Made by a program: the position numbers and the translations under genes
Notes under the pieces: generated by a model
Database searches by the model: none
What the model was told of the DNA's origin: nothing
The model's input: only the letters and a program-made list of their open reading frames with translations
Origin: Okamejei kenojei
Lineage: Eukaryota
Assembly: GCA_035221665.1 (NCBI GenBank)
Contig: CM069132.1
Location: 40,610,001 to 40,674,000, forward strand
Length of the DNA stretch: 64,000 nucleotides
Reading direction: 5' to 3'
In this document: positions 176 to 63,558 of the stretch, piece by piece
Numbering within the stretch: position 1 is the first letter of the stretch
How the letters are laid out: the number at the start of each line of letters is the position of its first letter

Positions 176-3100
176 CCCTTGGGGGGTGTTTGCTAGTCTG
201 GGAGGATTTAAACCAATGTGGCAGGGGGATGGGTACAAGAGCAGAGAGGCAGGTGGGTGTAAAATGAGGGTAGAAGCAATAGGTAGCAAGTGAAAAGTAA
301 AAGTGGCAGGCAGACAAAACCAGGGCAAAAATCAAAAATGGCCACTTTTCAACATAATTGTATAAGGGGTAAGAGTGTTGTAAAAACAAGCCTGAAGGCT
401 TTGTGCCTCAATGCAAGGAGTATTCGTAATAAGGTGGATGAGTTGAACGTGCAGATAACTATTAATGATTATGATATAGTTGGGATCACGGAGACATGGC
501 TCCAGGGTGACGTAGGCTGGGAGCTGAACATCCAGGGATATTCAATATTCAGGAGGGATAGAGAGAAAGGAAAAGGAGGTGGAGTAGCGTTGCTGGTTAG
601 AGAGGAGATTAACGCAATGGAAAGGAAGGACATTAGCTTGGAGGATGTGGAATCGGTATGGGTAGAGCTGCAAAACACTAAGGGGCAGAAAACGTTGGTG
701 GGTGTTGTGTACAGGCCACCTAACAGTAGGAGTGAAGTTGGGGATGGTATCAAACAGGAAATTAGAAATGCGTGCAACAAAGGTAAAACAGTTATTATGG
801 GTGACTTCAATCTAAATATAGATTGGGTGAATCAAATTGGCAGGGGTGCTGATGAAGAGGATTTCTTCGAATGTATGCGGGATAGTTTTCTAAATCAACA
901 TATAGAGGAACCAACGAGAGAGCAGGCTATTTTAGACTGGGTTTTGAGTAGTGAGGAAGGGATAGTTAGCAGTCTTGTTGTACGTGCCCCTTTGGGCAAG
1001 AGTGACCATAATATGATTGAGTTCTTCATTAGGATGGAGAGTGACATTGCTAATTCAGAAACAGTGGTTCTGAACTAAAAGAAAGGTAACTTTGAGGGTA
1101 TGAGACGTGAATTGGCCAAGATTGACTGGCAAAGGGTTGACGGTGGATATGCAATGGAAGACATTTAAAGACTGCATGGATGAACTACAAAAATTGTTCA
1201 TCCCAGTTTGGCAAAAGAATAAATCGGGGACGGTAGTGCATCCATGGATAACAAGGGAAATCAGAGATAGTATCAAAGCAAAGGATGATGCGTACAAAGT
1301 AGCCAGAAAAAGCAGCATACCAGAGGACTGGGAGAAATTCAGAGACCAGCAGAGGAGGACAAAGGGCTTAATTAGGAAAGGAAAAATAGATTATGAAAGT
1401 CAATTGGCAGGGAACATAAAAACTGACTGCAAAGGTTTTTATAGATATGTGAAGAGAAAGAGATTAGTTAAAACAAATGTAGGTCCCTTGCAGTCAGAAA
1501 CAGGTGAGTTGATCATGGGGAACAAGGATATTGCAGACCAATTGAATAACTACCTTGGTTCCTTTCAATTCACTTCCTTATGTCTTCACTAAGGAAGACA
1601 TAAATAATCTGCCGAAAATAGCAGGGGACCACGGGTCAAAGGAGGAATTGAGTGAAACCAGGTTAGTCGGGAAGTGGTGTTGGGTAAATTGAATGGATTA
1701 AAGGCCGATAAATCCCCAGGGCCAGATAGGCTGCATCCCAGAGTATTTAAGGAAGTAGCTCCGGAAATAGTGGATGCATTAGTGATAATCTTTCAAAACT
1801 CTTTAGATTCTGGAGTAGTTCCTGAGGATTGGCGGGTAGCAAACGTAACCCCTCTTTTTAAGAAGGGAGGGAGAGAGAAAACGGGGAATTACAGACCAGT
1901 TAGTCTAACATCGGTAGTGGGGAAACTGCTAGAGTCAGTTATTAAAGATGGTATAGCAGCACATTTGGAAAGTGGTGAAATCATTAGACAAAATCAGCAT
2001 GGATTTACGAAAGGTAAATCATGTCTAACAAATCTTGTGGAATTTTTCGAGGATGTAACTAGTAGCGTGGATAAGGGAGAACCAGTGGATGTGTTGTATC
2101 TGGACTTCCAGAAGGCTTTCGACAAGGTCCCACATAAGAGATTAGTATACAAACTTAAAGCATACGGCATTGGGGGTTCAGTATTGATGTGGATAGAAAA
2201 CTGGCTGGCAAACAGGAAGCAAAGTGTAGGAGTAAACGTGTCCTTTTCCCAATGGCAGGCAGTGACTAGTGGGGTACCGCAAGGCTCAGTGCTGGGACCC
2301 CAGCTATTTGCAATATATATTAATGATCTGGATGAGGGAATTGAAGGCAATATCTCCAACTTTGCGGATGACACTAAGATGGGGGGCAGTGTTAGCTGTG
2401 AGGAGGATGCTAGGAGACTGCAAAGTGACTTGGATAGGCTGGGTGAGTGGGCAAATGTTTGGCAGATGCAATATAATGTGGATAAATGTGAGGTTATCCA
2501 CTTTGGTGGCAAAAACAGGAAAGCAGACTATTACCTAAATGGTGGCCGATTAGGAAAAGGGGAGATGCAGCGAGACCTGGGTGTCATGGTACACCAGTCA
2601 ATGAAAGTAGGCATGCAGGTGCAGCAGGCAGTGAAGAAAGCAAATGATATGTTAGCTTTCATAGCAAAAGGATTTGAGTATAGGAGCAGGGAGGTTCTAC
2701 TTCAGTTGTACAGGGTCTTGGTGAGACCACACCTGGAGTATTGCGTACAGTTTTGGTCTCCAAATCTGAGGAAGGAATTATTGCGATAGAGGGAGTGCAG
2801 AGAAGGTTCACCAGACTGATTCCTGGGATGTCAGGACTGTCTTATGAAAAAAGACTGGATCGACTCGGTTTATACTCTATAGAATTTAGGAGATTGAGAA
2901 GCGATCTTATAGAAAGTTACAAAATTCTTACGGTGTTCGACAGGCTAGATGCAGGTAGATTGTTCCCGATGTTGGGGAAGTCCAGGACAAGGGGTCACAG
3001 CTTAAGCGTAAGGGGGAAATCCTTTAAGACCGAGATGAGAAAGACTTTTTTCGCACAGAGAGTAGTGGGTCTCTGGAACTCTCTGCCACAGAGGGTAGTT

Positions 3101-3288
3101 GAGGCCAGTTCATTGGCTATTTTTAATAGGGAGCTAGATGTGGCCCTTGTGGCTAAGGGGATCAGAGGGTATGGAGAGAAGGCAGGTACGGGATACTGAG
3201 TTGGATGATCAGCCATGATCATATTGAATGGCGGTGCAGGCTCGATGGGCTGAATGGCCTACTCCTGCACCTAATTTCTATGTTTCTA
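176..3288 (+). mobile_element. CR1-clade LINE, 5'-truncated near the end of ORF1, almost complete ORF2 plus 3' UTR
   Basis: APE endonuclease motifs (LNARS, ITETWL, VYRPP, MGDFN, LDWVL, SDH) in ORF 290-1078; RT motifs (KSPGPD, NYRPVSLTS, QHGF, LDFQKAFD, GVPQGSVLGP, FADD) in 1674-2789; CR1 C-terminus (TRGH, WNSLP) in 2741-3199; 3' end TTTCTATGTTTCTA. Confidence 0.95.
290..3199 (+). pseudogene. CR1 ORF2 (endonuclease/reverse transcriptase) broken by frameshifts into four ORFs
   Basis: Collinear ORFs 290-1078, 1107-1592, 1674-2789 and 2741-3199 in different frames. Confidence 0.9.
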
Positions 3289-11710: not shown

Positions 11711-13027
11711 ATGTACAGCACCACGCATACATCCTCATGATTTTTAATATCCATTATTTTATCAATACAGTAATTCCAGGTGATCAACCCTAATTTACTG
11801 AGAGTTGCAAAAGGATATGCCAAAAAGTAAAGCAATCCCACAGATCAGATCTGATCAAAGCTGAAAGGATCAAAGTTTAAAGGAAATACGCATGGCAAGA
11901 TATTTTTTTACAGTGGGAGGGCTTTTTCCTGTGCTGTACTGTTCTATGTTCAAAGCTTTGGACTTTTAGTTTAGTTTAATTTATTTTAGAGATCTGGTAA
12001 ATCAAGCAAATCAGGTTGCGAATCTTAAAAAGATATTAAAAAGCTAATGAGACAATGTGGCTTTAAGAATAACCTTGGAAATTGGCGGTTCCCAGTGTGC
12101 GATTGCTAAAAATAATGTTTAAACCTCCATAGTCTTGCTCAGCTGTCAGCTGCAAGTAAATAATTTGCCTTGACTTTTGCATTGAAGCATTGACTAAAAC
12201 CAGGACTAATCTAATCCGACTACTTGCCAACCATTCCTCCCAAACTTAATATTCAGAGTGATGGAAAATGTAATTGACAATGCTCTTAAGTGGCAATTGC
12301 TTTCTGATTTCAACTCACCAACACTCTGCCCTGGTTTTGCTAGAACCACCTGGCTCCAGAGCCTCATCACACCCTCCAAAGAGTTGAATTCCAAAGGGAA
12401 GTAGCAGAGAATACCCCTGATTCCAAGCCATTTGACCAAATGTAATGACAAAAATTAAAATTAATGGGCAGGAGTAAAACACTCCAAAGTCCAATTATAC
12501 ATTGGAAGATTGTTGTCTTTGTTGGAGGTCAGTCATCCCATTGGATCACCATTTCCAGAGTTCCTCAGGGCAGTGTCCTAAGGCGAGTGCTTTATCACTG
12601 ACCTTCCACATGGTTTACTTTCATTTGCTTCTATTCAAAATATTTACTATCTGCAAATAGCAACATTCCGGCATGGATACAAATGGACAAAATACAAATA
12701 ATATTTGAGCTTTGAAAGTATCAAAGACCATTCCAAATGAGCCTAACCACCCATTCTCGAAACTCACATAGTTAGTTTAGGATCAAGAAAAGTCATGAAG
12801 ATGGTGGAACCCAAATTGTCCTGGGGCACTCCTGCAGCCATGTTCTGGGAGATATTTTTGTTAATAGGATGACAAGTTATGAAAAAATCACGGCCTATAA
12901 AAGGTTACCAACAGATTAAGTGAGTGAGCAGTTACATAACAAGGGAATGTAATATGAGGAAATATGGTTATCCTCTTTTGTAGGAAAAGTATGTTGTTGA
13001 AATGGAGACAGGCTAAAGAATAGTGCT

Positions 13028-13164
13028 TCTTCTTCTTTCGTGTGGCGTGCACAGCCTAAAGTTGTTGGACAACTTGTTCTATTTGATCTTCCGTTTGTGC
13101 ACGTCGAGTTGATTGCATTAGTCGAAGCAGGGCGGACCTCGTGAAGGTTGCAATCTTCCACCCC
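13028..13164 (-). mobile_element. 137-bp non-autonomous retroposon with HDV-like ribozyme head and (GAA)n tail, 12-bp TSD
   Basis: TSD AAGAATAGTGCT at 13016-13027 and 13165-13176; minus-strand 3' end ...GCCACACGAAAGAAGAAGA; inserted in a CR1 remnant. Confidence 0.85.
13111..13164 (-). ncRNA. Minimal HDV-like (nested double pseudoknot) self-cleaving ribozyme, predicted
   Basis: GGGGUGG(P1) AA GAUUGCA(P2) ACC(P3) UUCACGA(L3) GGU(P3') CCGCCCU(P1') GCUUCGA CUAA(J4/2) UGCAAUC(P2'); G1-U wobble at the cleavage site. Confidence 0.8.
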
Positions 13165-13871
13165 AAGAATAGTGCTGAATAGTGTTGATGTTCGTGTATC
13201 TGAAATATTGAAAGCCAAAATGCAGGTTGAATGAGTATTTATTTTTAATGAATGTTTCCCTTTCCTGCAACATTGATGGATAACAATGGTAATAAAGTAT
13301 TTTTACATCTATTTTGATTTATGCTGAGACCACAGCAAGAGTATAGCATAGAATTTTGGTTTCTTTATCCAGGTGTAGTTTTGTGAGGAATAGTGGAATA
13401 TGTTGAGCTTACCCTCATTGGAATTTAGGAGATTGGAAGGTGATCTTTTTTGAAACTGATACCAAAAGGGGGTGACATTGCAGAGACTAATGTATGGAAA
13501 TGTACAACTGGGGGACATCGTTTTTAGAATAAGGAGACCCCATTTAAAAAAAAGTTTCTTCTCTGTGTCTTGAATCTTAAGATTTCTATTTCTATTAAAC
13601 CAATGATCTTATTAAAAACAGAAATGGACTGAATTATTTTGGCGAATTGCAATTTGAAGGTTATAAAGAAAAACAGTAAAATTGTATTTGTGACCATGAT
13701 CAAGTAAGCCATTATCTTTCTAAGTGACAGAGAAGGCACAAGGGTACTTGGCCAACTTCTACTTTTATTTTTGCGTCATTTATAAAACGATGACCTTTAT
13801 GGAAAGGCTAACATTTCTTGCTCTTCCCAGCTTGTCCTCAAAGTTGTAGTGAGCCATCTTCCTGAACCAAG

Positions 13872-21163: not shown

Positions 21164-24004
21164 TTACTGATCCTGCCCGAGCGCGTACGGATGTCTCCCC
21201 CCTCCCCCCGAAAGAGCAGAAGAAGCAGGAGGACGCAAGGCAGCCGGGGAACCAGGGAAGGGCATTGGGGTGGGAGAAACAGGAGAGGGAGAACCGCGAT
21301 CGGCAACAGGGGACCCGCGCAGAGGGGAACCAGGCGCCCGCGACGGGGACCGAGGCATGCAGGGAACACCAGCCGGGGCGGCAGCCGGCTGCTGATAGGA
21401 GAGTGGAGGGGCATAGGGCCCAGGGGGCTGCGGCTGTGGCTCATTAACCGCAAGCAGGTGTTGTCGGCTTCTTCGGTAGATGGAACCCTCACAGTCGACC
21501 AGATACGAACGAGGTGAGTCGGCCACCCCAACCACGGTGGCCAGACGGTAGTGCCCACTGGCGGTCTGCAAACGAACAACCTGTCCGGGCAACAGAGGAT
21601 CGAGTGGTCTGCACGACCGATCGTGGGAACGCCGCTGGCTGTCATGTTTCTCTTGAATTCGCCTCTGCACGGAGGCGGGCTCCAGCACCCGAGGTTTCAG
21701 CTGGCGCTGGGCAATCGGGACGGTGGATCTGGTAGTTCTGGACATCAGACGCTGAGCAGGGGACCCCATGGCCGGATCCCTGGAAACATTCCTGAGGTTC
21801 AGGAGATCCAAATACAAATCAGAATTGGATAGTCGCGCCTGTTCCATCAGAAGCTTGGCGCTGCGGACGGCCCGTTCTGCTAGGCCGTTCCTCTGTGGGT
21901 ACTCTGGGCTGCTGGTGAAATGCACGAAGTTCCACTTGTCGGCAAAGCTTTTGAATTCTCGGCTTGTAAACTGCCTGCCGTTGTCAGTCTGCAGCCTGAC
22001 CGGGGTCCCAAAAGTGGAGAAGTGTTTCCGCAGCTTGCGGATCACCATCTCCGACGTGAGGGATGTCAGCAAATCCACTTCGAACCAGTTGGAGTACGAG
22101 TCGACCAGGACAAGGTAGTGGTTACCACGCCACTCGAATATGTCGGCAGCCAGCGAGGACCAGGCCAAAGCAGGGGCGGGCTGTTGCAGCAGGGGCTGTC
22201 GCTGCTGGTGCGGCGCAAGACTGTTGCACGTGGAGCAGGCAGAAACTCGGTCTCGGATATATTTGGCCATTCCAGGCCAATAGAATTGGCACTGAGCGTG
22301 GGCAAGCGTTGCATCGACCCCAGGGTGTCCGCTGTGGGCTGCACAAAAGTAAAAGTCAAACAGGGAGGACGGGACCACAACTTTATGTCCCTTGACGATA
22401 ACGCCATCCTGGAGCACCAGTTCGTCGCGGACCAGGAAGAAAGGCTGTGCTTCAGACGGCGCGGCGGAGCGCTTTGTTGGCCACCCTGCTTTAATCACCG
22501 ATGCAAGCTGCTGCAAAGCCAGATCGGCAGCGGTGTGCTCGGCCAAAACCTGTAGCTGCTTGGTGGGAATAAAGTTAAACGCCCAGTACGAGCAAGTCCT
22601 CTGTTTCGTAGGGGTGGCGAGCGCAGGAGGTACGCGGGGCTCGCGACAGGGTGTCCGCAATGTGCATCTCGGTGCCCTTCTTGTAGATTATGTCAAAGTC
22701 GAAGCGCTGGGAGCTGCAGCATCATACGCTGCAGCCTGGCAGGGGCAGCGTGAATCGGCTTGTTCAGGATTGTCACCAGTGGCTGGTGGTCGGTTTCGAC
22801 CGTAAATCTGCTGCCGAACAGGAAGTCTCTGAACTTGGAGCAGGCGAACACCACCGCGAGCAGCTCTTTCTCGATCTGAGCGTACCGCTGCTCGGTGTCC
22901 GTCATGGTGCGGGAGGCATAGGAGACGGGATGCAGCGATCCATCGACAGACTGAAGGCAGGCCGCACCCAGACCGAACTTGGAAGCGTCACAGGTGACGG
23001 TGATGGGGCGACCCACGTCGAAGAACCGCAACGTCGGAGTGCTAATCAGTTTCGACTTGAGGCGGTCAAAAGCCTGCTGGTGATATGGGAGCCAGGCCCA
23101 GGCGATATCCTTTTTGTCAGCTGCCGCAGGGAGCACTCAGCTCACTGAGGTTTGGTATAAACTTGCCAAGGTAGTTCACCATGCCCAAGAATCGTTGCAG
23201 ACCTGGCACGTCGGTGGGGGCTGCCATTTCGGAGATGGCAGCGACCTTCAAGGGGTCGGGCTTTAGTCCGTTAGGGGTGAAAACATGTCCAACATACGTG
23301 ACCTCTGAGACACGAAACCGGCACTTCTTGGGATTCAGCTTCAGGTTCGCCTGTCGCGCGCGATCCAGGACGCGGCGGAGGTTCAGGTCGTGCTCGGCAA
23401 GGTCCTTCCCGTAAACCAGGATATCATCCACGATGATGGCACATGGCAGGTGCGCGAATAATTGCTCCATCGTCTGCTGGAACACCTCGCTAGCAGAATT
23501 GATGCCGAATGGCATTCGCAGGAACTTGAATCTGCCGAACGGTGTGGCGAAGGTCGTCAGGTCAGAAGACGCTTTGTCCAACGGGACCTGCCAAAACGAG
23601 TTCTTAGCGTCTAGGACCGAAAAGATGGTGGCTTGCCCGACCTTTGCCGCCACATCCTCAACAGACCGCATGGGGTAATGTGGTCGCCTGATGGCAAGGT
23701 TTAAGTCCTTCGGGTTGATACACACGCGTATCTCGTTCTTGTCTTTCTTAATCGTGGCAACCATGGTGGAGACCCAATCGGTGGGCTCGCTAACTGCTAC
23801 TAGCACCCCCTTTTCGACCATCTCGTTGAGCATCGCCTCGACCTTGTCCTTCATGGCGTGAGACACCCTGTGAGGTGCGCGGACCACGGGTTGTATATTT
23901 GGGTCAATGGAAATATGGTATGACACTGGTAACTTCCCCAGGTCATCGTCGAACAGGTCCTGGTATTCAGCAACCGGGTCAAACGAAAGTTGCACTTTAA
24001 GTTG
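21164..24004 (-). pseudogene. Gypsy pol, frameshifted into RT, RNase H and integrase ORFs
   Basis: ORFs 23117-24091 (element-derived only to about 24004), 22693-23136 and 21164-22660. Confidence 0.9.
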
Positions 24005-24842
24005 CATTATGAGGGAAGGCGCAAAGTCCAGTCCCAATCCCCATGTCCAACCAGTTTTGAAATCTGTTGAAAATTGATTGGCGTGAATCACATTTATAGT
24101 TATCTTCTTAAAAGTGAATGCAGTACTGCCTATTGAACTTTGGGCACAGGGTACAAATCATTGCTAAAACACGCACTGACACTAATTTGTTTAAACCACT
24201 AGTTCGCTGTAGTTGTGCATAGACTGGCAGGCAGATCTCCTTAACTTCGGGTTATGGAAGATCGCCAGCATGCTGCTGTCTGACATCATTTTGTTTTCCC
24301 ATTTTAGACTTGACCGAATTTCAGATAACTTATGATGCTATTGGTAATTGGAAAATTGGCAGACTTGTCACAAATGTTTGGGAGAGAGTGCATAAAATAC
24401 AGGAATAAAAATGGTCTGTTAAGTAAGATTTATAGTCACTTCAGCTAAATGAAGTAACTGACTACAAAATAGAACAACATTTTCTGTCACTGCAACAACT
24501 TGGTACTATTAATTTGATGGTAGTTGAGACTTTTGTAAACTTTACTTTCAATGCATTGAATTTAAATCAGCTCTGAGTAAATGTCAGTGAAGCTTTGCAG
24601 CACGGAAATGATCTGTTGATTGTTTTATTGTGACACAAATAGTAAGTGAGGAGATGAAATTTCAATTGAGAAGGCTCCTCATGATGCAAGAATAATGTAT
24701 TTAATAATATGAAGGATAACTATTTAAGCATTATAGCATTAAAATAATGAAAATGGATTAAATAGAGATAGTGTTTTTAAATTGAAATGAATCGGAACAT
24801 TAAATAGCATTTTTAACATTGTGTACGATTCATCTCAAATGA

Positions 24843-30740: not shown

Positions 30741-31293
30741 TTGCTGCTGCTGTCTCTGTTTGTTGTTCGCCTGACTGAGGTCAGTTCACCAAGGGGAGGT
30801 CAACAACATGAGCCGGAGGCTGGTGTACAAGGCCCCATCGGATGCCAAACATCCTCTGCACCACCTCACCCAGGACTCACAGCTACTGGGACCTCAACAC
30901 CTGTCATCTCGTCGGCCCTTCCCCCATCACACAGCGACCCTCTAAGGCTCCGGTTTCATCATACTATGAGCACCGAGAACCAGCTGGGAACAGGCTTTGC
31001 GACCTCCACAATTCACTGTTGCACGGAACACCATAGCCCCACCTGACTCAGACCTGCCCCGCAAAGAGTGGGTCGCTCTGAACCGGCTCCATACAGGGGT
31101 CGGCCGGTTCAACGCCAACAAGCATTGCTGGGGGCTGCGTTCATCAGCAGCCTGCATCTGTGGAGGACTGCTCTGTCCTCCGCCCCCCTGGTGGGGGGGT
31201 AGACCTCATGGCCCTTGACAACAGCACATTGAACTGGCTACAGCGCCTGCAGGGCGTTACATAACTTCTGCTGCCTCAAAAGCAAGATGAAGA
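30741..31293 (+). mobile_element. RTE-clade LINE 3' fragment with 12-bp TSD
   Basis: DLPRKEWVALNRLHTGVGRF...CICG C-terminus; tail GCAAGATGAAGA; TSD ACTCTACAGTTA at 30729-30740 and 31294-31305. Confidence 0.75.
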
Positions 31294-32261: not shown

Positions 32262-33234
32262 TTATAGTGAACCCAACACCGCGTGTCCAAAGCCTGTCAT
32301 TGTGTGAACAGGTTTATTGTAGAACTTTGAAAAAGTTTCTTCTTTACACCACCCTGCGGTTTCTAAAATATGTTCGAGTGGTACGTCCTGTAACTTCGCC
32401 GCGGATGTAGCTGCTGCCCTGGTGGAGTGAGATTTGAACACATCAGTGTCTACTCCTGCTAAAAGTAACACCTGTTTTAACCACCTTGAAATTGTTTGCA
32501 CTGAAGCTTTTGTGTGTGGTTTCTTATGCGTAATCATTAATGTTTTTTTCATCTCCCCGAAGAGTTTTAGTAACTTTTACATAATGATTCAAATGTTTAA
32601 CTACACACAACGTTGGATCAATGGGATAAGCTTGAAACATTACCTTCGCTTCAGTTCTCCCTGGTCTGCTTTGTTTGATCAGATCATAAACATAGAACAC
32701 AATGTTATCTGCAGTCACATGCATACAGTCTAAACGTAACATTTGTAATGTTTGCACCCTTTGAGCTGAAACCAATGCCATTAACATTACTAATTTAAAT
32801 GTTAACCTTTCCAATGACAAACCTTCGATTGGAGTCCATTGCCTAAGTAAGGTAAGTACAATGCTAACATCCCAAATTTCTGTATATCTTGGTTTGGGTG
32901 GATTTTTGTTAAAGATTCCTTTCATAAATCTGGATATTAATGGATGTGACCCAATTGATTTCTGGTCTGAGATTTGTCCTAAATAAGATGATAAGGCACT
33001 ACGTGCACTATTAATGGCACTGTAACTTAAGTGTTGTTCAAAATGCAATTCGGCAAGGAACTCCAATATGTTTGCAATGTTCACAGTATGATAGGATATA
33101 TTTGACTGTCTGCAAAATTTTTCCCATTTCTTTATATGTGTCATATATTGTCTCTGAGTGCTATCTCGCCATGATGCGACTATAATATCCATAGTTCTAT
33201 CCGATAATCCAAGCTCCTGTAGTGGTCTGGTCAA
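32262..33234 (-). CDS. DIRS tyrosine recombinase (one frameshift at 32543-32549)
   Basis: ORFs 32524-33234 and 32262-32552; catalytic R (SAQR), K, HSTR, W (AGW) and Y (KFYNK). Confidence 0.9.
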
Positions 33235-34934
33235 AACCTGCAGATTAACAAATTCATATAAGCATGTAATGGATGAATTTCTTTGGTTACTGGTTTTATC
33301 AATAAATCACTGCTGCTAGGAATTGACATATATGGTTCTTTAATCATGTTTAACATTAATGGGAACCATGGTTGTGTCGGCCAATTTGGAATTACCAATA
33401 ATCCTGTGGCAGAATCTTGTTCTATTTTCTTCAGACATTGCTGAACCAGAGCAAATGGTGGAAAAGCATAAAAGAACATATTCCCCCAGTTTAGTGAAAA
33501 AGCATCTACTGCTACTGCGTCTGGATCTGGTTCCCAAGACACATATTTAGGCAATTGATGATTTAGTCTTGAAGCAAACAGATCAATGTCTGGTAACCCA
33601 TATTGAGTCACAATTTTACTGGAAATTACTGGGTTCAACATCCATTCTGTGTTATCTTTAAACATCCTTGATCTATTGTCTGCCACCACATTGTCTTTAC
33701 CTGGGATATAATTTGCCGAAATCCAAATTTGGTGGTTAATACACCATTGCCATATCTGATTGACCAAACAATCACATGATACCGATCTGACTCCACCCAT
33801 GTGATTAATATATGCAACAGCTGTTTTATTGTCTAATTGTATCAGTACATGCAGATTCTTTTTTGTAGAACAATATGCCTTCAACCCATAAAATGCACCC
33901 AATAATTCTAAATAATTAATACCATATGTTTGGAGAAACATTTCCTCTTGGACAGTCCATCTGCCTCCATAGTTGGTGAATGAATCTGTCGCCCCCCATC
34001 CGAGAGCACTAGCATCTGTTTGTAAAATCACTTCAGGCTGTTGTATCAGAACCTTTTTAGCAGCTTGTGGGACATTTTCAATCCACCATTGTAATTCCAA
34101 TAAAGCTTCTTTTGTTAATTGCATAGGCCTATCAAAATGGCCTGCTCTCTTTTTTAGAGCTCTTATTTTGTCCCTTTGAAGGTTTTGGTAATGTAATGGA
34201 CCAAATTCTACTGCAGGAAATGCTGCTACTAGTTTACCAATAACCTTTGCTACTTCTCGGATGGAGGGATAAGGTTTGTGAATGAGACCCCTACAGGTCA
34301 CCAAAATATCATCAATCTTATCTGTTGGCAAAGTTACTAACATAGTAACTGAGTTAATTACAAACCCCAAATAGTTAATTGACTGTGCTGGCTGCAGCTG
34401 GGACTTAATTGGATGAATCAAGAAACCTAACTTCTCAAATAAAGTTTTAGTTGCTGAAACTGATTTTTCAGCTGATTCCTGATTACTATTGATGATTAAA
34501 ATGTCATCCAGATAAGCCATAATGATGTGCTTTTGTGCTCTTAATTGTGCTAAAGCTGGTTTCAACAGCTTTGTAAAGAGCCTGGGAGCTGAACTTAACC
34601 CATTTGGTAAACCTTTGAATTGCCACAGCTGTCCCAGCCAATTAAATTTTAAATACCTTAGAAAGAACTGATGTATTGGTACTGAATAGTACGCATCCTT
34701 TAAATCAATTGTAGCCATATAACAACCTGCTGATATCAAATGTCTTGCAGTGTTAAATGTTTCCATTTTAAAATGTTTATATTCAACAAATTTATTAAGA
34801 TTTGTAAGGTCCAGAATAATTCTGCAACCACCATCTTTTTTTATTTCTTGGAAATATATTTGACACAAATTGATGCTCATGTTCAACAGTTTTTTCAATA
34901 ACACCTTTTTTAAACAATTTGTCAATTTCCACAT
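33231..34934 (-). CDS. DIRS RT / RNase H / Dam-like methyltransferase
   Basis: IDLKDAYY, LPNGLSSAPRLFTK, YLDD; TDAS, INYLEL, DNKTAV, NVVAD; IDLFAS...YAFPPF...PNWPTQPW. Confidence 0.92.
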   Translation of the reverse strand: MWKLTNCLKKVLLKKLLNMSINLCQIYFQEIKKDGGCRIILDLTNLNKFVEYKHFKMETFNTARHLISAGCYMATIDLKDAYYSVPIHQFFLRYLKFNWLGQLWQFKGLPNGLSSAPRLFTKLLKPALAQLRAQKHIIMAYLDDILIINSNQESAEKSVSATKTLFEKLGFLIHPIKSQLQPAQSINYLGFVINSVTMLVTLPTDKIDDILVTCRGLIHKPYPSIREVAKVIGKLVAAFPAVEFGPLHYQNLQRDKIRALKKRAGHFDRPMQLTKEALLELQWWIENVPQAAKKVLIQQPEVILQTDASALGWGATDSFTNYGGRWTVQEEMFLQTYGINYLELLGAFYGLKAYCSTKKNLHVLIQLDNKTAVAYINHMGGVRSVSCDCLVNQIWQWCINHQIWISANYIPGKDNVVADNRSRMFKDNTEWMLNPVISSKIVTQYGLPDIDLFASRLNHQLPKYVSWEPDPDAVAVDAFSLNWGNMFFYAFPPFALVQQCLKKIEQDSATGLLVIPNWPTQPWFPLMLNMIKEPYMSIPSSSDLLIKPVTKEIHPLHAYMNLLICRF

Positions 34935-36369
34935 TTATTTCTGCCTCTTCAATTGCTGAAAACATGAAACCATAAGCAGGTTTATTTTGTACCGGAGAAT
35001 TAACACCTTCTTTAAATGTAATAGTAGCTCCTGAAACTGTTTGTAAAATAAACCGATCAGATGTGATGGCAAGCCATTCATCATAAAACATTTGTAATCT
35101 CCCTCCAACTGGAGATTTGTCCACAGTTTCTTTAAGCATAGAATAAATTTTTTGTACCTCTCCATATGAACGTGGTGGTCTCCTTCTCCCCGTATACGGG
35201 TGAACATTAGGCTGTGTCGGATGATAGTATTTTCTTATCATACTCCTGCCTCTGTTTCCAAAATCAAATCCCCTTCTTGACGAAAAATACCTTTTTTGTC
35301 CAAAGACGAAAGCTCTCATGTGGCTAATAGATTTAGCCTCTTCATCCATTTCTCTTATTTGTTTAGGCAGGTTTTCTCCAAATAGATAACCAGGAGCTTG
35401 AACACCACTTGATCGACACAGACTTGCAAACCTTGGATGAAATATGGGCCGAATCGCAATTTTCCTCATACAATTAATTTCATAGAAGGAATTGCATAAT
35501 AAGCCCAAAGTATCTTTTTGGATTTTATCCATCTCCAACCCCTCCATTTGCCTTCCAAAAGCAGTAATGGCAGCAGAAATCAATTTGAGGATTCTTTGAA
35601 ATCTTATTTCTTGTCCTCTCATGCCTGGAGTCATAGGCGTCCATATAGACGGATTAACCGTAGGTACCTTCAATGAGGTGCAATTTTCCGGTGTTTTATA
35701 TAATTCTGCTGTTTCAATCATCACAGAATCTTGAAGTTGGTGAGATACCATATAATTAATACTGGCAGCTAGGTTTTCTTCCATAGCCTCACCACTTCCT
35801 TCAGGTATAGCAAAATCTTTTGCCATTTCAGGCACATCTGGCCTTCTCTTTTTTATTCGTGGTGTGCACTCATAATCCACATCACCACTTGCAGGGTCTG
35901 TCTTTTGCAGCCCTGATACACTTGGAATTATATCCAATGAGACTTCCTCCGCCCTTAATCCTGGGTCCGGAGTTTCAAATTCCCAATTTGGCACATAGCC
36001 ATATTCTGTATATTCAAGCCCCTCAGGGTCATTTTGGGAAACTTCTGGGTACTGTGACCCTTGTCTCATTATATTTTGGAGCACTTTCTCCATATGTTCC
36101 ATTTTTAGCCATATAGCTTTATTATCCGGAGGACTTTCATTATCAGAGTCATTATCAGAAACCACGGGCCTCACGGATTTCTTTTTACATTTTCTAGGAA
36201 CATTTTCCTCCATGGTTTGTATTTCTGGAGAAATTATAGTCTCACTAACGGGTGAATCAGCGGCCACCGGTATCGGAACCGGATCCGCACTAAACTCTTG
36301 TCCCGTATCTTTAGCTTCACCCCGGGACAATCTTTTTACCCGCAAAATTTTCCTTTGAGACTTCTCCAT
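34795..36369 (-). CDS. DIRS gag-like protein running in frame into the RT N-terminus
   Basis: 524-aa ORF; gag-like (PENC..LKVP.VN..IW, LFGENL) then VGGRL..FYDEW...IDKLFKKGVIE...FVSNIF. Confidence 0.85.
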   Translation of the reverse strand: MEKSQRKILRVKRLSRGEAKDTGQEFSADPVPIPVAADSPVSETIISPEIQTMEENVPRKCKKKSVRPVVSDNDSDNESPPDNKAIWLKMEHMEKVLQNIMRQGSQYPEVSQNDPEGLEYTEYGYVPNWEFETPDPGLRAEEVSLDIIPSVSGLQKTDPASGDVDYECTPRIKKRRPDVPEMAKDFAIPEGSGEAMEENLAASINYMVSHQLQDSVMIETAELYKTPENCTSLKVPTVNPSIWTPMTPGMRGQEIRFQRILKLISAAITAFGRQMEGLEMDKIQKDTLGLLCNSFYEINCMRKIAIRPIFHPRFASLCRSSGVQAPGYLFGENLPKQIREMDEEAKSISHMRAFVFGQKRYFSSRRGFDFGNRGRSMIRKYYHPTQPNVHPYTGRRRPPRSYGEVQKIYSMLKETVDKSPVGGRLQMFYDEWLAITSDRFILQTVSGATITFKEGVNSPVQNKPAYGFMFSAIEEAEINVEIDKLFKKGVIEKTVEHEHQFVSNIFPRNKKRWWLQNYSGPYKS

Positions 36370-37594
36370 TTTCTATTCCATTTATCTGGCTAAATCAGTA
36401 CGCCAGCGTGACTCTGATTTTAACTTTTACTTTCTCTTTTGCTGGTTTTACCAGCGTAACGTCTCTTTTAGAACGTCCCCACTTTTCCTTACACTTACCT
36501 GCGGGTCCGTTCCGGCCGCTGCGAGGAGCTGCGCTCTGCAACTCTTGCTTCTGCCGTCAGCGTCGACGTAATGCCGTTCCAGCGCCAGGCGGGGCTTCTT
36601 CACGTAGTCACTCACGTGACTCCGAAGTAAAATAGTTTTGTCCCTCAACATTTCCATACAATTATTTATCCCTGCAATCCTTCTTGAATGACGCTATCTG
36701 CATGGTCAATGCATATCAGTCAGATCAAGTTGATACAAGCAAACTTTCCAGTCTGTTGAAAAAGTTAAGGTGGTGCAGATCATGAGACAACATCAAGAGC
36801 TAATGAGAAGCCAAAAGTTTGCACAATTATAACCTGTTATATATGTTTTTCAAAAACAAATCAGACTAAAGGATACTGGGTCATTAATGTACAGGTTAAC
36901 AGTTTTTATAAACCAATCAAAATAATTTTCTAAGAAATAACGAGCATGGTATTCCTTTCCACCTAGCGACTTTACCATTACAATCTTGAAAATGTCAATG
37001 GATTATATTTATTTCCTATTTGCTTAATCTTCTTGTTTATTCTCCTAACATCCATGGTGCCTTGTACTACACAGTTCAGTATTTACCCATGTCACTGAAT
37101 TTCATATCTGCCTTCTGACAACTCTCCAATAAATAACGATTAAAACATATATATGCTTTAACTTGCTATATTAATGCTTAAATGCAAAAACAGACCTGAA
37201 AATAAATAGGACTAAAGTCACATAAAGCATTATGTGTTACTGACAACGATCTTGGCATTTGTAATTGTAGGATTGCAGAGGCTCTGTCATAGTAACGAAA
37301 AGGAAATTGTAGTTGATAGCTCAGACATATTCCCAGAACAATTGATGCCAGAAGAACAAAATCATGGATGAAGAAAAACAGGTTAGTCTAATGAAGCTCA
37401 TCTTTCTTGTATATTAACTTTTTGCCATCATGGCATTTACTTATATTTGGAATTAGTTTTGTTATGCTGCTGAGGATTTCAACTCTTTATCATTCTTACT
37501 GTTAGAAAACTTTTCTTCATATAAATCCACGTTTCATTAATTCCCCCCTTGACTCTGATGTGCTAAGTTTATTTTGAAACAATAGGTTAATAAA

Positions 37595-42981: not shown

Positions 42982-45900
42982 AAGTCAAGTCAAAGTCAAA
43001 AGAGTTTATTGTCATGTGTCCCTGACAGGACAATGAAATTCTTTCTTTGCATAGCACAACAGAACATAGTAGGCATTGACTACAGTTATATACTTAAATA
43101 CACACATTAATTAATAAATTAATAAAATGCAAATAACAGATGGAGGGGTATTAATGTTCATTGTTTTGTCTGAGCCAGGTTTAATAGCCTGATGGCTGTG
43201 GGGAAGTAGCTATTCCTGAACTGTGTTGTTGCAGTTCTCAGGCTCCTGTACCTTCTACCCAAAGGTAGCAGGGAGATGAGTGTGTGGCCAGGGTGGTGTG
43301 GATCCTTGATGATGTTGCCAGCCTTTTTGAGGCAGCGACTGTGGTAGATCCCCTCGATGGAAGGAAGGTCAGAGCTGATGATGGACTGGGCAGTGTTTAC
43401 TACTTTTTGTAGTCTTTTCCTCTCCAGGGCACTCAAGTTGCCGAACCAAGCCACGATGCAACCAGTCAGCAAGCTTTCTACTGTGCACCTGTAGAAGTTA
43501 GAGAGAGTCCTCCTTGACAGACCGACTCTCCGTAATCTTCTCAGGAAGTAGAGCCGCTGATCAGCTTTCTTAATAATTGCATCTGTGTTCTCGGACCAGG
43601 AAAGATCTTCGCAGATGTGCACGCCTGGGAATTTGAAGCTCTTGACCCTTTCAACCATCGACCCATTGATATAACCAGGACTGTGGGTCCCCATCCTACT
43701 CCTTCCAAAGTCCACAATCAGTTCCTTGGTTTTGCTGGTGTTGAGGGCCAGGTTATTGTGCTGGCACCATATGGACAGTCGCTCGATCTCTCTTCTGTAC
43801 TCCGACTCATCCCCATCAGTGATACGTCCCACTACAGTGGTGTCATCAGCGAACTTGATGATGGAGTTCGCACTGTGACCGGCTACGCAGTCATGAGTAT
43901 AGAGTGAGTACAGCAGGGGGCTGAGCACGCAGCCTTGAGGTGCTTCCGTGCTGATTGTTATCGAGTCTGACACATTTCCACCAATTCGAACAGACTGTGG
44001 TCTGTGAATGAGGAAGTCGAGGATCCAATTGCAAAGGGATGCGCAGAGACCCAGTTCTGCGAGTTTGGTAACCAGCTTGGAGGGGATGATAGTATTAAAT
44101 GCCGAGCTGTAATCGATGAATAACAGCCTGACATATGAGTTTTTGTTGTCCAAGTGGTCCAGAGCGGAGTGGAGGGCCAGTGAGATCGCGTCCACCATTG
44201 ATCTGTTGTGGCGGTAAGCGAACTGCAGTGGGTCCAGGGTTTTGTCAAGGTAGGAGTTGATTTGCGCCATGATCAACCTCTCGAAGCACTTCATCACCAC
44301 AGGCGTTAGTGCCACAGGTCGATAGTCATTGAGGCACGTCACCTTGCTCTTCTTGGGCACCGGTATTATTGATGCCCTTTTGAGGCAGGTGGGAGCCTCA
44401 GACCTCAGAAGTGACAGGTTGAAAATGTCCGTAAAAACTCCAGCCACTTGGTCCGCACAGGTTTTTGAAACACGACCAGGTATGCCATCAGGTCCAGACG
44501 CTTTTCGAGGGTTCATCCCTCTGAAGGATTTCCTGACGTCGGCCTCTGTGACTGAGACTGAAATACCATCACAGCGAATGGGGGCTCGGGAAGGCACATC
44601 GGAGTTCTCCCTATCAAAGCGTGCGTAAAATGCATTGAGCTCATCAGGGAGTGATGTATCGCCGACATCCGAGCTGCCTCCTGGTTTCGCCTTGTAGGAG
44701 GTGATTGCATTCAGGCCCTGCCACAGCTGCCGAACATCTGTCTCATCCTCCAGTTTGGATCAGAACTCCCTTTTGGCTTTTTTGATGGCCTTACCATATC
44801 TGGACTTCGTGTAGACCACTGTATCATCAGACATGCATGCCCGGTATCTGGTCTTCAGAAGAGTGTGGATCTCAGAGTTCATCCAAGGTTTCTGATTGGG
44901 AAACACTTGGAAGGTTTTGGTGGGGATGCAGTCCTCCACACATTTCTTAATGAAGTCTGTAACGACTGTGGCATATTCATTCAAGTCCGTTGCCGAGTCC
45001 TTGAACATTGCCCAGTCTACAGACTCCAAACAGTCCTGTAGTTGTTCCTCTGCCCCCCCCCGACCAGCTCTGTACTGTCCTCACCTCTGGGGGTGCGCTC
45101 TTTAATTGCTGCCTGTAGGCAGGAAGAAGCAGCACCGCAGTGTGGTCCGATTTACCGAAGTGAGGGCGAGGGATGGAGCGGTAGGCATTCTTGATGGTGG
45201 TGTAGCAGTGGTCGAGGGTGTTTGGTCCTCTGGTGCAGCAGGAGACATGTTGGTGGAAGTTGGGGAGTGATTTCTTGAGGTTTGCCTTATTGAAGTCCCC
45301 AGCAATGGTGGTAACTGCCTCGGGGTAAGACGTCTGGTGTTTGTTGACCATGGCGTGCAGCTCCTCCAGTGCCAGATGGACGTCTGCCTGGGGTGGGATG
45401 TAGACCGCGGTCAGGATGATGGAGATGAATTCCCTCGGAAGGTAGAAGGGACGGCACTTCACCGCCAGATGTTCGAGATGTTGAGAGCAGGAGTTAGACA
45501 GGACTGCCACGTCTGAGCACCATGCAGAGTTGACCATGAGGCAGACGCCCCCTCCTCTCCCTTTCCCCGATGCCAGTGTACGGTCCATGTGGTGGATGGA
45601 GACCCCTTCAGGCTGGACCGCTGAGTCTGGGGAGCTGGGGGTGAGCCATGTCTCTGTGAAACAGAACACATAGCATTCCCTCAGCTCTCTTTGATAAAGC
45701 AGTCTTGCCCTTAAGTCCTCCACTTTATTTTCAAGGGATTGTACATTGGCCAGTAGGATAGTAGGGAGAGGGGGCCAAAGTCCCCTGCGCTTCAGTCTGA
45801 CCTGAAGTCCTGCCCGCCGGCCACGTTTCCGGACACAATGGAGGCTTCCCCTTTGTTTCCAGGTACTGTGTTTCCTATACCTGCTGTTTCTGTGTACCAG

Positions 45901-46130
45901 CGCTGGAACGGGAATTCCCTCACAGACGGCAGCTCCAGCTCCGTAACGAACGGGGGTTCCCTCAAAGTCAGCAGCTCCAGCTTCATTTTTTCTGGGATAT
46001 CCAGCCCGTCGGCTCTGGAGGTCATCCCGGGGTTTATAATGCACAAAATAACCTACACCCACTTAAACAAGGGAGATATGGTAATATTGATACAGAGGCA
46101 TGTCTGGAACCAAGAGCGCAGATGCGTCAA
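42982..46130 (-). mobile_element. Rex1/Babar-clade LINE, near full length, frameshifted
   Basis: EN (LANVQSL, FTETWL, YIPP, AGDFN, TLDH, SDH) in 44977-46062; RT (ASGPDG, DYRPVALT, QFAYR, APQGCVLSP, KFADD) in 43158-44597; AATAAA plus (GACTT)n tail. Confidence 0.93.
43158..44597 (-). CDS. Rex1-type reverse transcriptase (uninterrupted 479-aa portion)
   Basis: Complete RT motif set and C-terminal HPGH...FRNSYFPTAIRLLN. Confidence 0.85.
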   Translation of the reverse strand: MPSRAPIRCDGISVSVTEADVRKSFRGMNPRKASGPDGIPGRVSKTCADQVAGVFTDIFNLSLLRSEAPTCLKRASIIPVPKKSKVTCLNDYRPVALTPVVMKCFERLIMAQINSYLDKTLDPLQFAYRHNRSMVDAISLALHSALDHLDNKNSYVRLLFIDYSSAFNTIIPSKLVTKLAELGLCASLCNWILDFLIHRPQSVRIGGNVSDSITISTEAPQGCVLSPLLYSLYTHDCVAGHSANSIIKFADDTTVVGRITDGDESEYRREIERLSIWCQHNNLALNTSKTKELIVDFGRSRMGTHSPGYINGSMVERVKSFKFPGVHICEDLSWSENTDAIIKKADQRLYFLRRLRRVGLSRRTLSNFYRCTVESLLTGCIVAWFGNLSALERKRLQKVVNTAQSIISSDLPSIEGIYHSRCLKKAGNIIKDPHHPGHTLISLLPLGRRYRSLRTATTQFRNSYFPTAIRLLNLAQTKQ

Positions 46131-59241: not shown

Positions 59242-61619
59242 TGGTGTGTCACACACAGTGCGAACCTTCGGCTCTGAGGGGGGTCACGTGTCTCGATGAT
59301 GGGAGTGGGTGAACTCGGGCCCCTCTGGGGAATATTTAGGGTGGGGATTGCGTGTGCACCGTGGTGATTAGTAGGGAGTCATTAGAATAGTATTAAAGAA
59401 TAATTGGTTTGGACACACTCCGTGTCCCACCTCATTCTTCGCCGGACCGCTTCGAGTCCCACTACATTTGGTGACATACTGATGTCCAAAATTGAAAATT
59501 TGGTGAGCAAAACGCACGCCGCCAGCGACCAACCCATCGTTGCCGCCGACCAGGCCCAACTGAACGCGGTCACCCTGAAGCTGCCGACCTTCTGGACTGC
59601 TCAGCCGCAGGTATGGTTCCAGCAGACCGAAGCGCAGTTTAACATTCGTGGGGACCAACGAGACCCGCTTCTATTATATGGTTGGCGCGCTCGACCAGGA
59701 AACAGCCGATTGTGTAATCCCTTACCTGCAAAATCCGCCGGCGGCCAATAAGTATGGAGGTCTCAAGGCGCTGCTTCTACTCACCTTTGGTCTCAGCCAC
59801 CTGGAATGAGCGGCAAGGATCCTCAACATGGGCGGGCTCAGCGACCGGAACCCATCAGTCCAAATGAACGCATATTCAAACAACAGCCCTGCATGTTTTT
59901 TGAATATGTGTTCCTGCAGCAGTTGCCGGACGACCTCCACCCACTCCTTGCAGGGGTGAGTTTCGAAGACCCCCTGGCATTAGCGGAGCATGCCGACGAA
60001 CTGTGGCTGGCCAGGCGGCAGGAGGTGGGCTGGCCAGGCGGCAGGAGGATCTGGATCAGGTGTCCACGGTGCCCTGGAAGGCGCAGTGGCCTAGGGCCAT
60101 GCCCACCAAGGGCTCCGCGGAGCCTCCTGAGCCTGCCGGAGAAGCCGGTAGAGGAGCGTGGTGCTTCTACCAGCAGCGCTGTGGTTCGGCGGCCCCCCAA
60201 TGCCGCCCACCCTGTTCGTTTCCGGGAATCACTGCGGCGGTTGGCAAGATTCACCGCCTGTAGGCCTGGGACCGGCGCTCAGGCCGAAGATTCTTGGCCG
60301 ACTCGACCAACCCGAAGCATGGGGTACAACACCACATCCTCACTTCGGGATCACCACTTCATGCCCCCCCGACAAATTCCAGCTTGCAAAGGTGGAGTTT
60401 CTGAAGATGGAAGACATGGGGATTGTTCGATGCTCCCACAGCCCATGGGCTTCCCCACTGCATATGGTGCCCAAGGTCTCCGGCGGCTGGAGGCCTTGTG
60501 GTGATTACCTCCGCCTGAACTACGCCACCATCGCAGATCAATACCCCATCCCACACATATAGGACTTCTCCGCACATCTGTCTGGGACTAAGTTCTTTTC
60601 CAAGATCGACTTAGTCATGGCTTACCATCAGATCCCCGAGTGACCGGAGGATGTGCCAAACACTGCCATCATCACCCTTTCAGATTTTTCGAATTCCTGC
60701 ACATGCACTTCGGCCTTAAGAATGCTTTCCAATGCCTGATGGACACCATGGGGCGAAGGGTAGACTTCCTATTCATCTATATGGATGACATCCTTGTGGC
60801 TAGTCGATCGCGGCAGGACCATTGCACCCACCTTCGTCTGTTGTGCCAGTACCTCAACGAATACGGGCTGGTGATCGACCCAGACAAATGCCAGTTCGGC
60901 CTCTGGGCCATCGACTTCCTCGGCCACCATGAGATGCAGCACAGTGTGGCTCCCTTACCAGACAGGGTCGAGGCCATTCGCCGGTTCCCGCGGCCTTCCA
61001 CAGTGTGGAGCCTGCAGGAGTTTGTAGGCATGGCCCAATTTTACCATCGATTTGTGCCGGCGGCGGCAAGAATAATGCGGCCGCTCTTCCAGCTGTTGTC
61101 AGGAAAGCAGCGGGACGTGCAGTGGAGCGACATTGCCGTGGCGGCTTTTCAAGGGCCTGAAGGAAGCATTAGCTTGGGCGACGATGCTGTTGCATCTGTG
61201 GGTCGATGCCCACACAGCATTAACCATGGATGCCTCGGACTCCGCGATGTGCCAGAACAGTCTTTTGATGGCCATTGGCGGCCTCTCACCTTTTTCAGCC
61301 ACCAACTTAACCCAGCGGAGCGAAGGTATAGCGCTTTCGACCGGAAGCTGCTCACCTTGTACCTGGCGGTTAGGCACTTTCGGTATTTTCTGGAGGGCTG
61401 GGACTTCATCGCTTTTACTGACTATAAGCCCCTCACCTTTGCCTTCGCCAAGGTTGCTGACCCTTGGTCCGCTCGGCAGCAGCGCCAAGTCACGGGAGTT
61501 TCTGAATTCACCACGGACAACCGCCACATCACCGGGAAATGTAACCTGGTCGCTGACGCCCTGTTCCGTCCGGCTGTGGGAGCCTTTCTCGGCGTGGCCC
61601 TGGGCATTGACTATTCCAC
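59242..61619 (+). mobile_element. Ty3/Gypsy element (CsRn1/Kabuki-like gag): 5' LTR, degenerate PBS, gag, decayed RT/RNase H
   Basis: LTR ending ACTACA at 59466 then TTTGGTGAC; KLPTFWTAQPQVWFQQTEAQF; [36 protein letters not shown]. Confidence 0.9.
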
Positions 61620-63090
61620 CTTTTATTTTTTAATCATAAAATTTATTCAATTATTAAAAAATAATATTTAAAGGACAAAGGACAAAGGACATTTTATTGT
61701 CACGTACACCAATTGGTGTAGTGAAATTTGATTTGCCATGCAGCACATAAATAAAGATAAGACACAACATCATAGGATTTAACAGTAGGCATAAAAACAT
61801 CCCCCCACAATGGTTCCCACTGTGGGGGAAGGCAGCAAAGTCCAGTCCCATCCCCAGTTCACCCATAGTCGGGCCTATTGAGGCCTCCGCAGTCGCTGCT
61901 ATGGGGCCCGATGTTCCAGGCCGTTTTCGCCGGGTGATGGTGCTCCGGATTCGGGTGCACCTTCTCAGTGGCTTGGGGCACCTAGAACGGCCGCCTCTTA
62001 CACTAGGGGGTGTCTTTTACACAAGGCCGCTCCGGATGGAGCTCCACCACTGGGATGGAAGCTCCCAATGTAAAGTTCAGCTCCGCTGCCCGCAGCTGGC
62101 CACTCCACAGTCCCGCAGCTCCGCGATGTTTTTTGTCGGCGGTCTTCTGCTCACCGGAGCTCCAGCACGGTGACCCAGGCAAGGCATCGCCCCCTTCTCT
62201 CCGCGATGGCGCTCCAGCGGCCGTTCCTGGTGTCCCATGCCGCCGCCGAAGCCAAGGGTCCGGCCGGTCCCATCAAGAAATGCCGCTCCAGGCCTGCTGG
62301 GAGGACACGAGGACGGGTCGACGATGCAGCCCGGAGAAAAGCTACCTCTCCGACCAGGTGGGGACCAGGTAAAGCAGTTTCCCCTTCCCCCCACCCCCCT
62401 ATCCCTACATAAAAAAATATAGACTCCAAACAAAACACTTTTTACAGACTAAAAATAAAAAAAGTTAAAAGACAGACAGCTGCTGGGTGGGCAGCCATAC
62501 CAACTGGACGGCGCCCCCTAGTGTCTACACTACAATAAAACAAGCCAGAACCCACCACCATAATAAAATAAAAACATATACCCATAATAAACTACTGTAC
62601 AACTATGAAACAATCCTTATTGAGGATACATTCAACACCCTGCGGAGCCCAGCGGTCGCGGAACTCCCTCAGGGTGCCCCTGGACAGGGCGTATTCCCTT
62701 TCTAACCACACCTGACTAGCGGATGGCCAGCTTGGCCAGGCACAGGAGCAACCCAACCAGGACATCTTCAGCCCTACCCTCTCCCCTAGCACAGGGTGTC
62801 CAAAGATGAGGATGGTGGGTGAACAATGCAACCAGAAGGCAAGGAGCAGCCCCTTTAAGTATTCAAACAGTGGCTACAGCCTCACGCACTCCACGTACAC
62901 GTGGTACACAGACTCTTCCAGCCTGCAAAAGTGGCAGGCGGCTGGCGAGTCTGTGAACCGCGAGAGAAACAGGTTGCAGGGAACACCTCGGTGCAATACC
63001 CTCCACCCCAGGTCCCCAATGTAGAGGGGGAGAATCCCTGCGTAGAGGGACCCCACCGGGGGCCCCCCTCGCGACCCGAAGGTGAAACCG
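61620..63090 (-). mobile_element. Tx1-clade LINE 3' part, interrupted by a LINE 3'-UTR-like repeat (about 61671-62525)
   Basis: DLGWRVLHRGVPCN...CHFCRLEESVYHVYVEC zinc finger; T-rich end at 61620; inner repeat matches 20741-20882 plus 24005-24050. Confidence 0.8.
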
Positions 63091-63170
63091 GCCGGGACAA
63101 GGACTAGCTGCCCTAGAAGATAGTGGCCAAGCTGTCTTAGCGGAGATAGCGGCCAGAAGATAGTGACCCC

Positions 63171-63558
63171 GGAGGTAGCGGCCCCACAATATCAACGTGG
63201 ACATGGTTGAAGCACCGGCGAGGCACTACGAACTCCCAAACTGGTGCCCAGAAGTGCCGCTGAACCTTCGATGTGTGACATGGAATGCACGTCCGGGCCC
63301 AATGCCGGACTTCCTTCCGCAACCCATGCCATATGAACCTCGCAGCAACCAACGCTACCGTAGCCCGGATAGACGGATGGGCCAATCCATGAATGGCATC
63401 GAAAAAGCGACAACGCCAGGCCGCCAGAACAATAGACCACGACTGCCCCGTGGAGACATCACAGAGGACGGTAACGCCGGCGGGACCCGGTATGGCAGTT
63501 CGGTATGCCGACATCTTCTCGTCCACCAGCTGCGCCACCGCCAATGTGGAATAGTCAA
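63171..63558 (-). pseudogene. Gypsy integrase N-terminal fragment, inverted relative to its parent element
   Basis: HGLAHPSIRAT...WHGLRKEVRHWARTCIPC...HVHVDIVGPLP. Confidence 0.88.

Follow-up and report, generated by a model that had tools for sequence, protein, structure and literature searches.

A 137-bp deletion derivative of a Vingi-like LINE in Okamejei kenojei with a putative P4-less HDV-like ribozyme at its head

The insertion and its family

The 64-kb stretch of Okamejei kenojei DNA analyzed here (64,000 nucleotides, termed the window) contains on its minus strand a 137-bp element bounded by two identical 12-bp target site duplications (TSDs) (Table 1); positions within the element are numbered from its first base, G1. 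In a contig of sequencing run X14, which comes from a different organism (E) and covers the orthologous site, position 13027 is connected to the downstream flank and the insert is absent, so the TSD represents a true insertion scar, and the 137-bp insert with perfect 12-bp TSDs described in the original prediction stands at the same coordinates. No coding capacity was found in the 137 nt, and TSDs together with a LINE-type tail occur in many copies, as in bipartite LINE derivatives.

Table 1. Features of the 137-bp element and its flanks in the window
Feature	Position	Strand	Basis or remark
TSD copy at the 3′ end of the element	13016..13027	.	12 bp; present once at the empty site (run X14)
Bipartite non-autonomous Vingi-like retroposon, 137 bp, subfamily A copy	13028..13164	-	Genome copies and comparison with the parent LINE
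Part from the parent LINE 3′ end: last codons, stop, short 3′ UTR, (GAA)n tail	13028..13072	-	84-92% identical to LINE tails
Junction of ~20 nt, partly duplicating adjoining LINE 5′ UTR letters	13073..13092	-	Read by eye
Part from the parent LINE 5′ end, element 1-72	13093..13164	-	85-92% identical to LINE heads
P4-less HDV-like ribozyme fold, 54 nt, predicted cut 5′ of G1 (13164)	13111..13164	-	Descriptor and relatives; activity inferred
J4/2, candidate catalytic C at 13121	13118..13121	-	C in 92/99 copies
Linker of 6 nt in the place of P4	13122..13127	-	15-43 nt in other Vingi-like heads, as a rule with a hairpin
P3, 13146-13148 with 13136-13138; L3 of 7 nt, 13139-13145	13136..13148	-	Descriptor, covariation
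P2 5′ strand, partner 13111-13117	13149..13155	-	Descriptor
P1 5′ strand, partner 13129-13135	13158..13164	-	Descriptor
P1.1, C at 13143 with G at 13128		-	Descriptor, covariation
TSD copy adjoining G1	13165..13176	.	Identical to 13016..13027

Near-identical sequences occur in sequencing runs from six organisms (A-F), and all 40 matches scored in the genome itself were at or near full length with 96-100% identity. Genome-wide, exact matches numbered 6,187 for a 28-nt head pattern and 4,046 for a 35-nt tail pattern, with zero for the reversed-pattern controls. As the exact head pattern was present in 15 of 29 tail-picked copies, the genome probably holds something like 12,000 copies, a rough estimate. 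Among copies chosen by their tail alone, 28 of 30 extended to G1 and two were 5′-truncated, which bore out the claims of a family and of 5′ ends fixed at G1. Loose contig ends also clustered at 13164/13165 in runs X5, X14 and X16; these are contig ends, and it is conjecture that X3 and X5 are RNA runs. Exact TSDs of 8-13 bp flanked 30 of the 50 copies with intact head and tail; an extra G preceded G1 in a single one of these 30, and G stood at −1 in 9 of the 50 copies, that is, without excess.

Copies diverged from the majority sequence by a mean of 5% and a median of 3.7% in the copy alignment, and every pair of the fold described below, together with the catalytic C, was retained in 13 of the 29 tail-picked copies. 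The family falls into two subfamilies, distinguished within the head at positions 8 and 45 only, both of them unpaired. Compared with the majority sequence, the window copy has other bases at positions 26 (in L3), 38 and 99, and its variants at 26 and 38 were found in none of 30 tail-picked copies. An argument built on four variable unpaired sites was dropped, because the enrichment of the variants at 26 and 38 stemmed from the sampling of L001-L030, which had been chosen for likeness to the window copy. Rearranged copies, with an inversion of the head or of the stretch enclosed by the P2 arms, were seen at L003:810-920, at several head loci with unusual continuations and at a joint in run X3; their arrangement resembles the outcome of recombination or template switching at the inverted repeat of P2.

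The original prediction had also noted the absence of Pol III A and B boxes, and this held: the element has no B box and no strict A box, and a loose A-like pattern matches the reverse strand as well. No tRNA was found at the element, and it lacks the tRNA, 5S or 7SL head with Pol III boxes by which SINEs are strictly defined. It also differs from the theta ribozymes, which are phage-borne and cut at a tRNA 3′ end, in having no tRNA and in heading a retroposon. It cannot on these grounds be assumed to be promoterless, since trypanosome Pr77 is both a ribozyme and an internal promoter. A scan of 150 of the 387 unmasked reading frames of the window found no host gene, only mobile-element or sub-threshold matches; as the scan covered this part of the frames, read-through of a host gene is neither shown nor excluded. 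Frame reading placed other mobile elements of the window at 287-3199, 21164-24157, 32524-36372, 43158-46062 and 59752-63634, which we take to be CR1-like, two gypsy-like, DIRS-like and Rex1/Babar-like.

The parent LINE and its clade

Comparison with longer elements of the genome resolved the 137-mer into the first ~72 nt of one LINE, a joint of ~20 nt and the last ~45 nt of the same LINE. The connection was found through head copies with unusual continuations, of which locus L162, 41 kb from the window, carries the shared head, a C-terminal ORF piece and the shared tail within one TSD. The stretch L162:1469-1896 is itself a second internally deleted derivative of ~430 bp, with head and tail as in the 137-mer and a zinc finger in its ORF piece. 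The ORF piece had 713 candidates in the genome; of 30 LINE 3′ loci fetched, 25 ended in the full 137-mer tail, three in part of it and two did not, as counted by eye, and walking upstream from such loci reached copies beginning with the ribozyme-like head. The parent LINE is represented by L234, a 3,044-bp copy with an 8-bp TSD in which head and tail are both present. Parent copies are 82-91% alike, and no intact one was found among 150 scored candidates, in which the longest open frame had 446 aa. Copies of the 137-mer sit within copies of their own parent LINE (L238:499-635 and L222), and the short family has therefore outlasted the parent.

On this sequence comparison the element is an internal-deletion derivative of a 3.04-kb Vingi-like LINE, bipartite and non-autonomous. 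The dependence on a LINE that the original prediction had proposed is thus supported by both ends being common to the 137-mer and one Vingi-like LINE. Its proposal of an independent SINE-like family gives way to a deletion derivative whose head is the LINE's own 5′ end. Elsewhere in the window, at 30805-31167, a weak match to a Vingi-like C-terminus (30% identity, E 2e-8) is probably an older Vingi-like fragment.

To place the parent LINE, we compared its domain content and protein similarity with those of other LINEs. It has a single ORF with endonuclease, RT and zinc finger, and its 3,044 bp leave no space for an ORF1. In the copy L236, five frames gave an RT match and weak APE and zinc-finger matches and no RNase H, which was detected in the control L121, a Nimb-like LINE of the I group that has two ORFs, of which ORF2 is open over 1,276 aa, and ends in (AAG)n. 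Among 120 listed homologues, PF00075 was present in none, and most were ~1,000 aa long with APE and RT and lay on 3.0-3.9-kb contigs. An intact relative, P0001, is 75% identical to the parent LINE, and its best tblastn segment scored 200 bits to an I-group element, 126 to CR1 and 80 to RTE. A PDB search with the LINE protein returned distant RTs only, none of them Vingi or RTE. The clade names Nimb and RTE and the Vingi C-terminal motif are presumptive labels here, and the DUF6451 family of this genome is presumably RTE, as judged from its motifs. In the relevant part of PMC13708176, Vingi is described as compact, with a single ORF, as a sister of Ingi and, unlike Ingi, without RNase H. Because single ORF, compactness and RNase H absence match this description, and given that P0001 lies nearer the I-group element than either CR1 or the RTE family, the parent LINE is assigned as an I-group, Vingi-like element, an assignment based on sequence features.

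Further Vingi-like families occur in the same genome. One of them (L351-L354, corresponding to G000 C23, C22, C1 and C313, together with L341, L344, L347 and L348) is young, with copies 97-99.5% alike; its protein is ~45% identical to that of the parent, it carries its own HDV-like head with a short P4, and its last 17 nt are 88% shared with the 137-mer family. Two more have (GAA)n tails, one formed by L342, L343, L345, L349 and L350 (~95% alike) and the other by the single copy L346.

An HDV-like fold in the head

Under a hand-written descriptor, the first 54 nt of the element, which begin at 13164 on the minus strand, form 18 of the 18 pairs of the HDV topology. P2 (7/7) is entirely Watson-Crick, P3 pairs 3/3, P1.1 is the single pair C22-G37, J1/2 has 2 nt, and J4/2 reads CUAA in the order C-N-R-A and begins with C44, the candidate catalytic nucleotide. 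The HDV-like head first read from this sequence was hence recovered with its C-G P1.1 and its J4/2 C at 13121. The 7-bp P1 with the wobble G1.U36 was likewise borne out; beside five Watson-Crick pairs it holds a second wobble, U5.G32, that the first reading had missed.

Searching both strands of the window with the descriptor gave exactly one match, at 13164. In the 5.1 Mb obtained by shuffling the window 40 times with dinucleotides preserved, again on both strands, there were zero strict and six relaxed matches. Covariance models were less favourable: Rfam reported no HDV-like family for the element, whether at the gathering threshold or with E relaxed to 10, and the check by HDV-like models suggested in the original prediction came out negative. 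Nested folding of the head, with pseudoknots outside its model, gave z = −0.7 and rival hairpins. In the 3′ part of the element (window 13040-13103), a possible stem of positions 62-69 with 112-119, enclosing an inner hairpin, was weak (z = −1.4).

Within the family, covariation is almost absent: the subfamilies differ in the head at two unpaired sites, 8 and 45, and the LINE has U5-A32 where the 137-mer has U5.G32, differences too few for within-family covariation to serve as a test. All 18 pairs and C44 are maintained from the parent LINE through both subfamilies. The 6-nt linker in the place of P4 is also present in the parent LINE; since the parent already lacks P4, the minimal ribozyme would have arisen within the LINE lineage.

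Compensatory change was found at greater distance. We collected 75 metagenome loci of related elements, 23 of which contain the ORF start, and searched the 5′ regions of these 23. The descriptor matched nine of them (eight distinct) in sense, just upstream of the ORF, and none in antisense. With A or G at the catalytic position, zero matches were obtained, and with U two, both rereads shifted by one base. An earlier version of the descriptor had matched six of the 23, one of these additional to the later nine. Several of the 14 regions without a match were visibly truncated or decayed. In the nine aligned heads, 94% of cells were paired and 13 of the 18 pairs showed two-sided change, a value reached by none of 500 shuffles and by none of the slid controls; the result is partly circular because most of the alignment rows were picked by the descriptor. 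Pairs were counted on alignment A2, with its last three rows kept despite partial misalignment; it was used rather than A3, in which MAFFT had misplaced the P4-less rows.

The second Vingi-like family of this genome, found by RT likeness alone, is free of that circularity. In two of its four copies, a different sequence at the 5′ end forms a perfect fold; the remaining two are truncated within P1. At the sequence level it is a clean, non-circular confirmation of the predicted fold, and helix conservation with compensatory change, as had been predicted, is borne out among distant relatives and in this family. The P4 region of these relatives measures 15-43 nt, compared with 6 nt in the lineage studied here, parent included. 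Reading by eye also showed, in L256, an HDV-like head in which a long insertion separates L3 from the P3 3′ strand; it lies ~150 nt before the ORF match at 612, and both descriptors had missed it.

Mobilization, cleavage and significance

Taken together, we consider it likely that the element is a LINE deletion derivative that keeps two cis signals, a 5′ ribozyme and a recognized 3′ end, and is mobilized in trans. The deletion removed almost the whole LINE from its 5′ UTR to its final codons, and the 5′ ribozyme and the protein-recognized 3′ end would have been kept. A copy would be transcribed by upstream read-through or from an internal promoter; the double pseudoknot would fold, and C44 would cut 5′ of G1, so that the RNA has no cap and always starts at one base. 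Its 3′ end would then be bound by a Vingi-type APE-RT protein acting in trans, which would carry out TPRT, giving the 8-13 bp TSDs and (GAA)n tails; the TSDs, tails and shared ends are observed, and the TPRT reaction is taken from established LINE biology. The parent family would have been the first source of protein. The youngest copies may owe their mobility to the younger Vingi-like family, which is similar over its last 17 nt, a suggestion that we regard as rather doubtful. Cleavage by C44 is predicted from the fold, its conservation and the junctions. The predicted cut falls at the first base of P1, where the copies also start, a coincidence of places and not a mapped cut; an internal promoter would fix the 5′ end just as well, and this counts against deriving cleavage from the fixed end.

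An independently assembled SINE-like element, using an RTE or an I-group Nimb-like LINE through its (GAA)n tail, was also considered. Both the RTE and the Nimb-like families of this genome have (AAG)n ends, and RTE is known for bipartite elements and HDV-like ribozymes (PMC5786205, in part). The RTE-type partner named in the original prediction nevertheless had to be rejected: the 137-mer shares with 12 RTE loci nothing beyond a 12-nt chance word and the (AAG)n tail, and RTE offers neither the RT closeness nor the termini; both ends of the 137-mer match one Vingi-like LINE. The best 30 loci with the endonuclease PF14529 proved to be one Nimb-like family, and neither these nor 20 further LINE stretches had similarity to the 137-mer. 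This account is thereby largely refuted, and we hold it to be very improbable. A search for a partner by tail variants gave 98 matches, of which the 30 fetched were truncated or indel copies, and the 501-aa frame of L192 consisted largely of simple repeat.

For the head itself, the reading of the fold as a chance feature of an ordinary repeat agrees with the missing Rfam match and thermodynamic signal. It is opposed by the absence of strict matches in the shuffles, by relatives that match at their 5′ ends in sense only and respond to the catalytic controls, and by the second family; it is refuted in practice, and we give it next to no probability. More weight, although it too appears unlikely, belongs to a head of the same origin that lacks P4, no longer cleaves, and is retained as an internal Pol II promoter or protein-binding 5′ module, with the 5′ end fixed by the start of transcription. 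The Ingi-clade Pr77 head doubles as a promoter (PMC4035085, in part), transcription of bipartite LINEs is attributed to Pol II (PMC5786205, in part), and the short J1/2, the 6-nt linker, the lack of an Rfam match and the rival hairpins point the same way. The 2-nt J1/2 is a risk for the predicted activity; another HDV-like ribozyme was inactive with a J1/2 of 0 nt and weak with one of 1 nt (PMC4908430, in part). Against a non-cleaving head stand the persistence of 18/18 pairs and C44 from the LINE to both subfamilies and the absence of the extra-G cap mark. Moreover, P4-less ribozymes of 51-56 nt cleave in vitro, four theta ribozymes among them, and the phage drz-Mtgn-1 has a similar linker, of 7 nt by our own reading of the printed sequence (PMC10879173, in part). 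We therefore prefer a cleaving head.

The type of element is known from NARTc, RIME, R2 SIDE and non-autonomous Vingi, and it is for this reason not a new class. NARTc, RIME and SIDERs are direct precedents (PMC4035085, repeated in the review PMC6765202, both in part), as are R2 SIDEs. NARTc and RIME, the trypanosome partners of L1Tc and ingi, resemble our element in having both ends of an Ingi-group LINE, no ORF and a 5′ HDV-like ribozyme cutting at the first base, and active ribozymes have been demonstrated in NARTco (PMC4035085). The present element differs in its animal genome, its Vingi-like parent without RNase H, its total of 137 nt and its P4-less 54-nt head, compared with the 77 nt of Pr77. 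R2 SIDEs and R2/R1 SIDEs of Drosophila likewise combine a 5′ ribozyme with the 3′ end of the autonomous element and move by TPRT in trans; R2 is site-specific for rDNA and its SIDEs are rare, whereas our element is spread genome-wide in thousands of copies and would use an APE-type protein (PMC3414825, in part). The non-autonomous derivatives of hedgehog Vingi-1_EE are also internal deletions of a Vingi LINE (as cited in PMC5786205 and PMC4494074) and probably belong to the same class. As for the fold, drz-Mtgn-1 and the theta ribozymes share the lack of P4, a length of 51-56 nt, the common core and J4/2. Such minimal ribozymes are ~99% of phage origin and often cut tRNA trailers, in contrast to the loss of P4 within an animal LINE lineage suggested here; for the eukaryote set (human, mouse, protists) of that study, no match is reported (PMC10879173).

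Two features were not found in the published passages covered: the occurrence of ribozymes in Vingi or across Vingi-like elements, and an animal repeat headed by a P4-less HDV ribozyme. The passages on cartilaginous fish and sharks, including those of PMC3747384, held neither a Vingi ribozyme nor this family.

Some Vingi elements were originally named Ingi. A Vingi ribozyme may for that reason already figure in Ruminski 2011, and the 137-mer family may already be deposited.

Tentatively, and with slightly less than even confidence, we propose that the Vingi clade is headed by HDV-like ribozymes and that this lineage carries an active 54-nt P4-less core in a near-minimal, promoterless 137-nt retroposon, whose ~12,000 copies, nearly half of them pair-intact, would be able to cut host read-through transcripts in sense orientation. 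If cleavage is confirmed, 5′ HDV-like ribozymes would be extended to the Vingi clade. Vingi 5′ UTRs are already placed on the RNAs of gene-insertion platforms (PMC13708176, in part), and these 5′ UTRs may by analogy contain such a ribozyme. Confirmed cleavage would also give minimal HDV ribozymes, whose origin and role have been called open (PMC10879173), a eukaryotic home and a traceable origin by loss of P4, and the thousands of dated copies would then allow a direct test of whether they are purged from the sense orientation in host genes.
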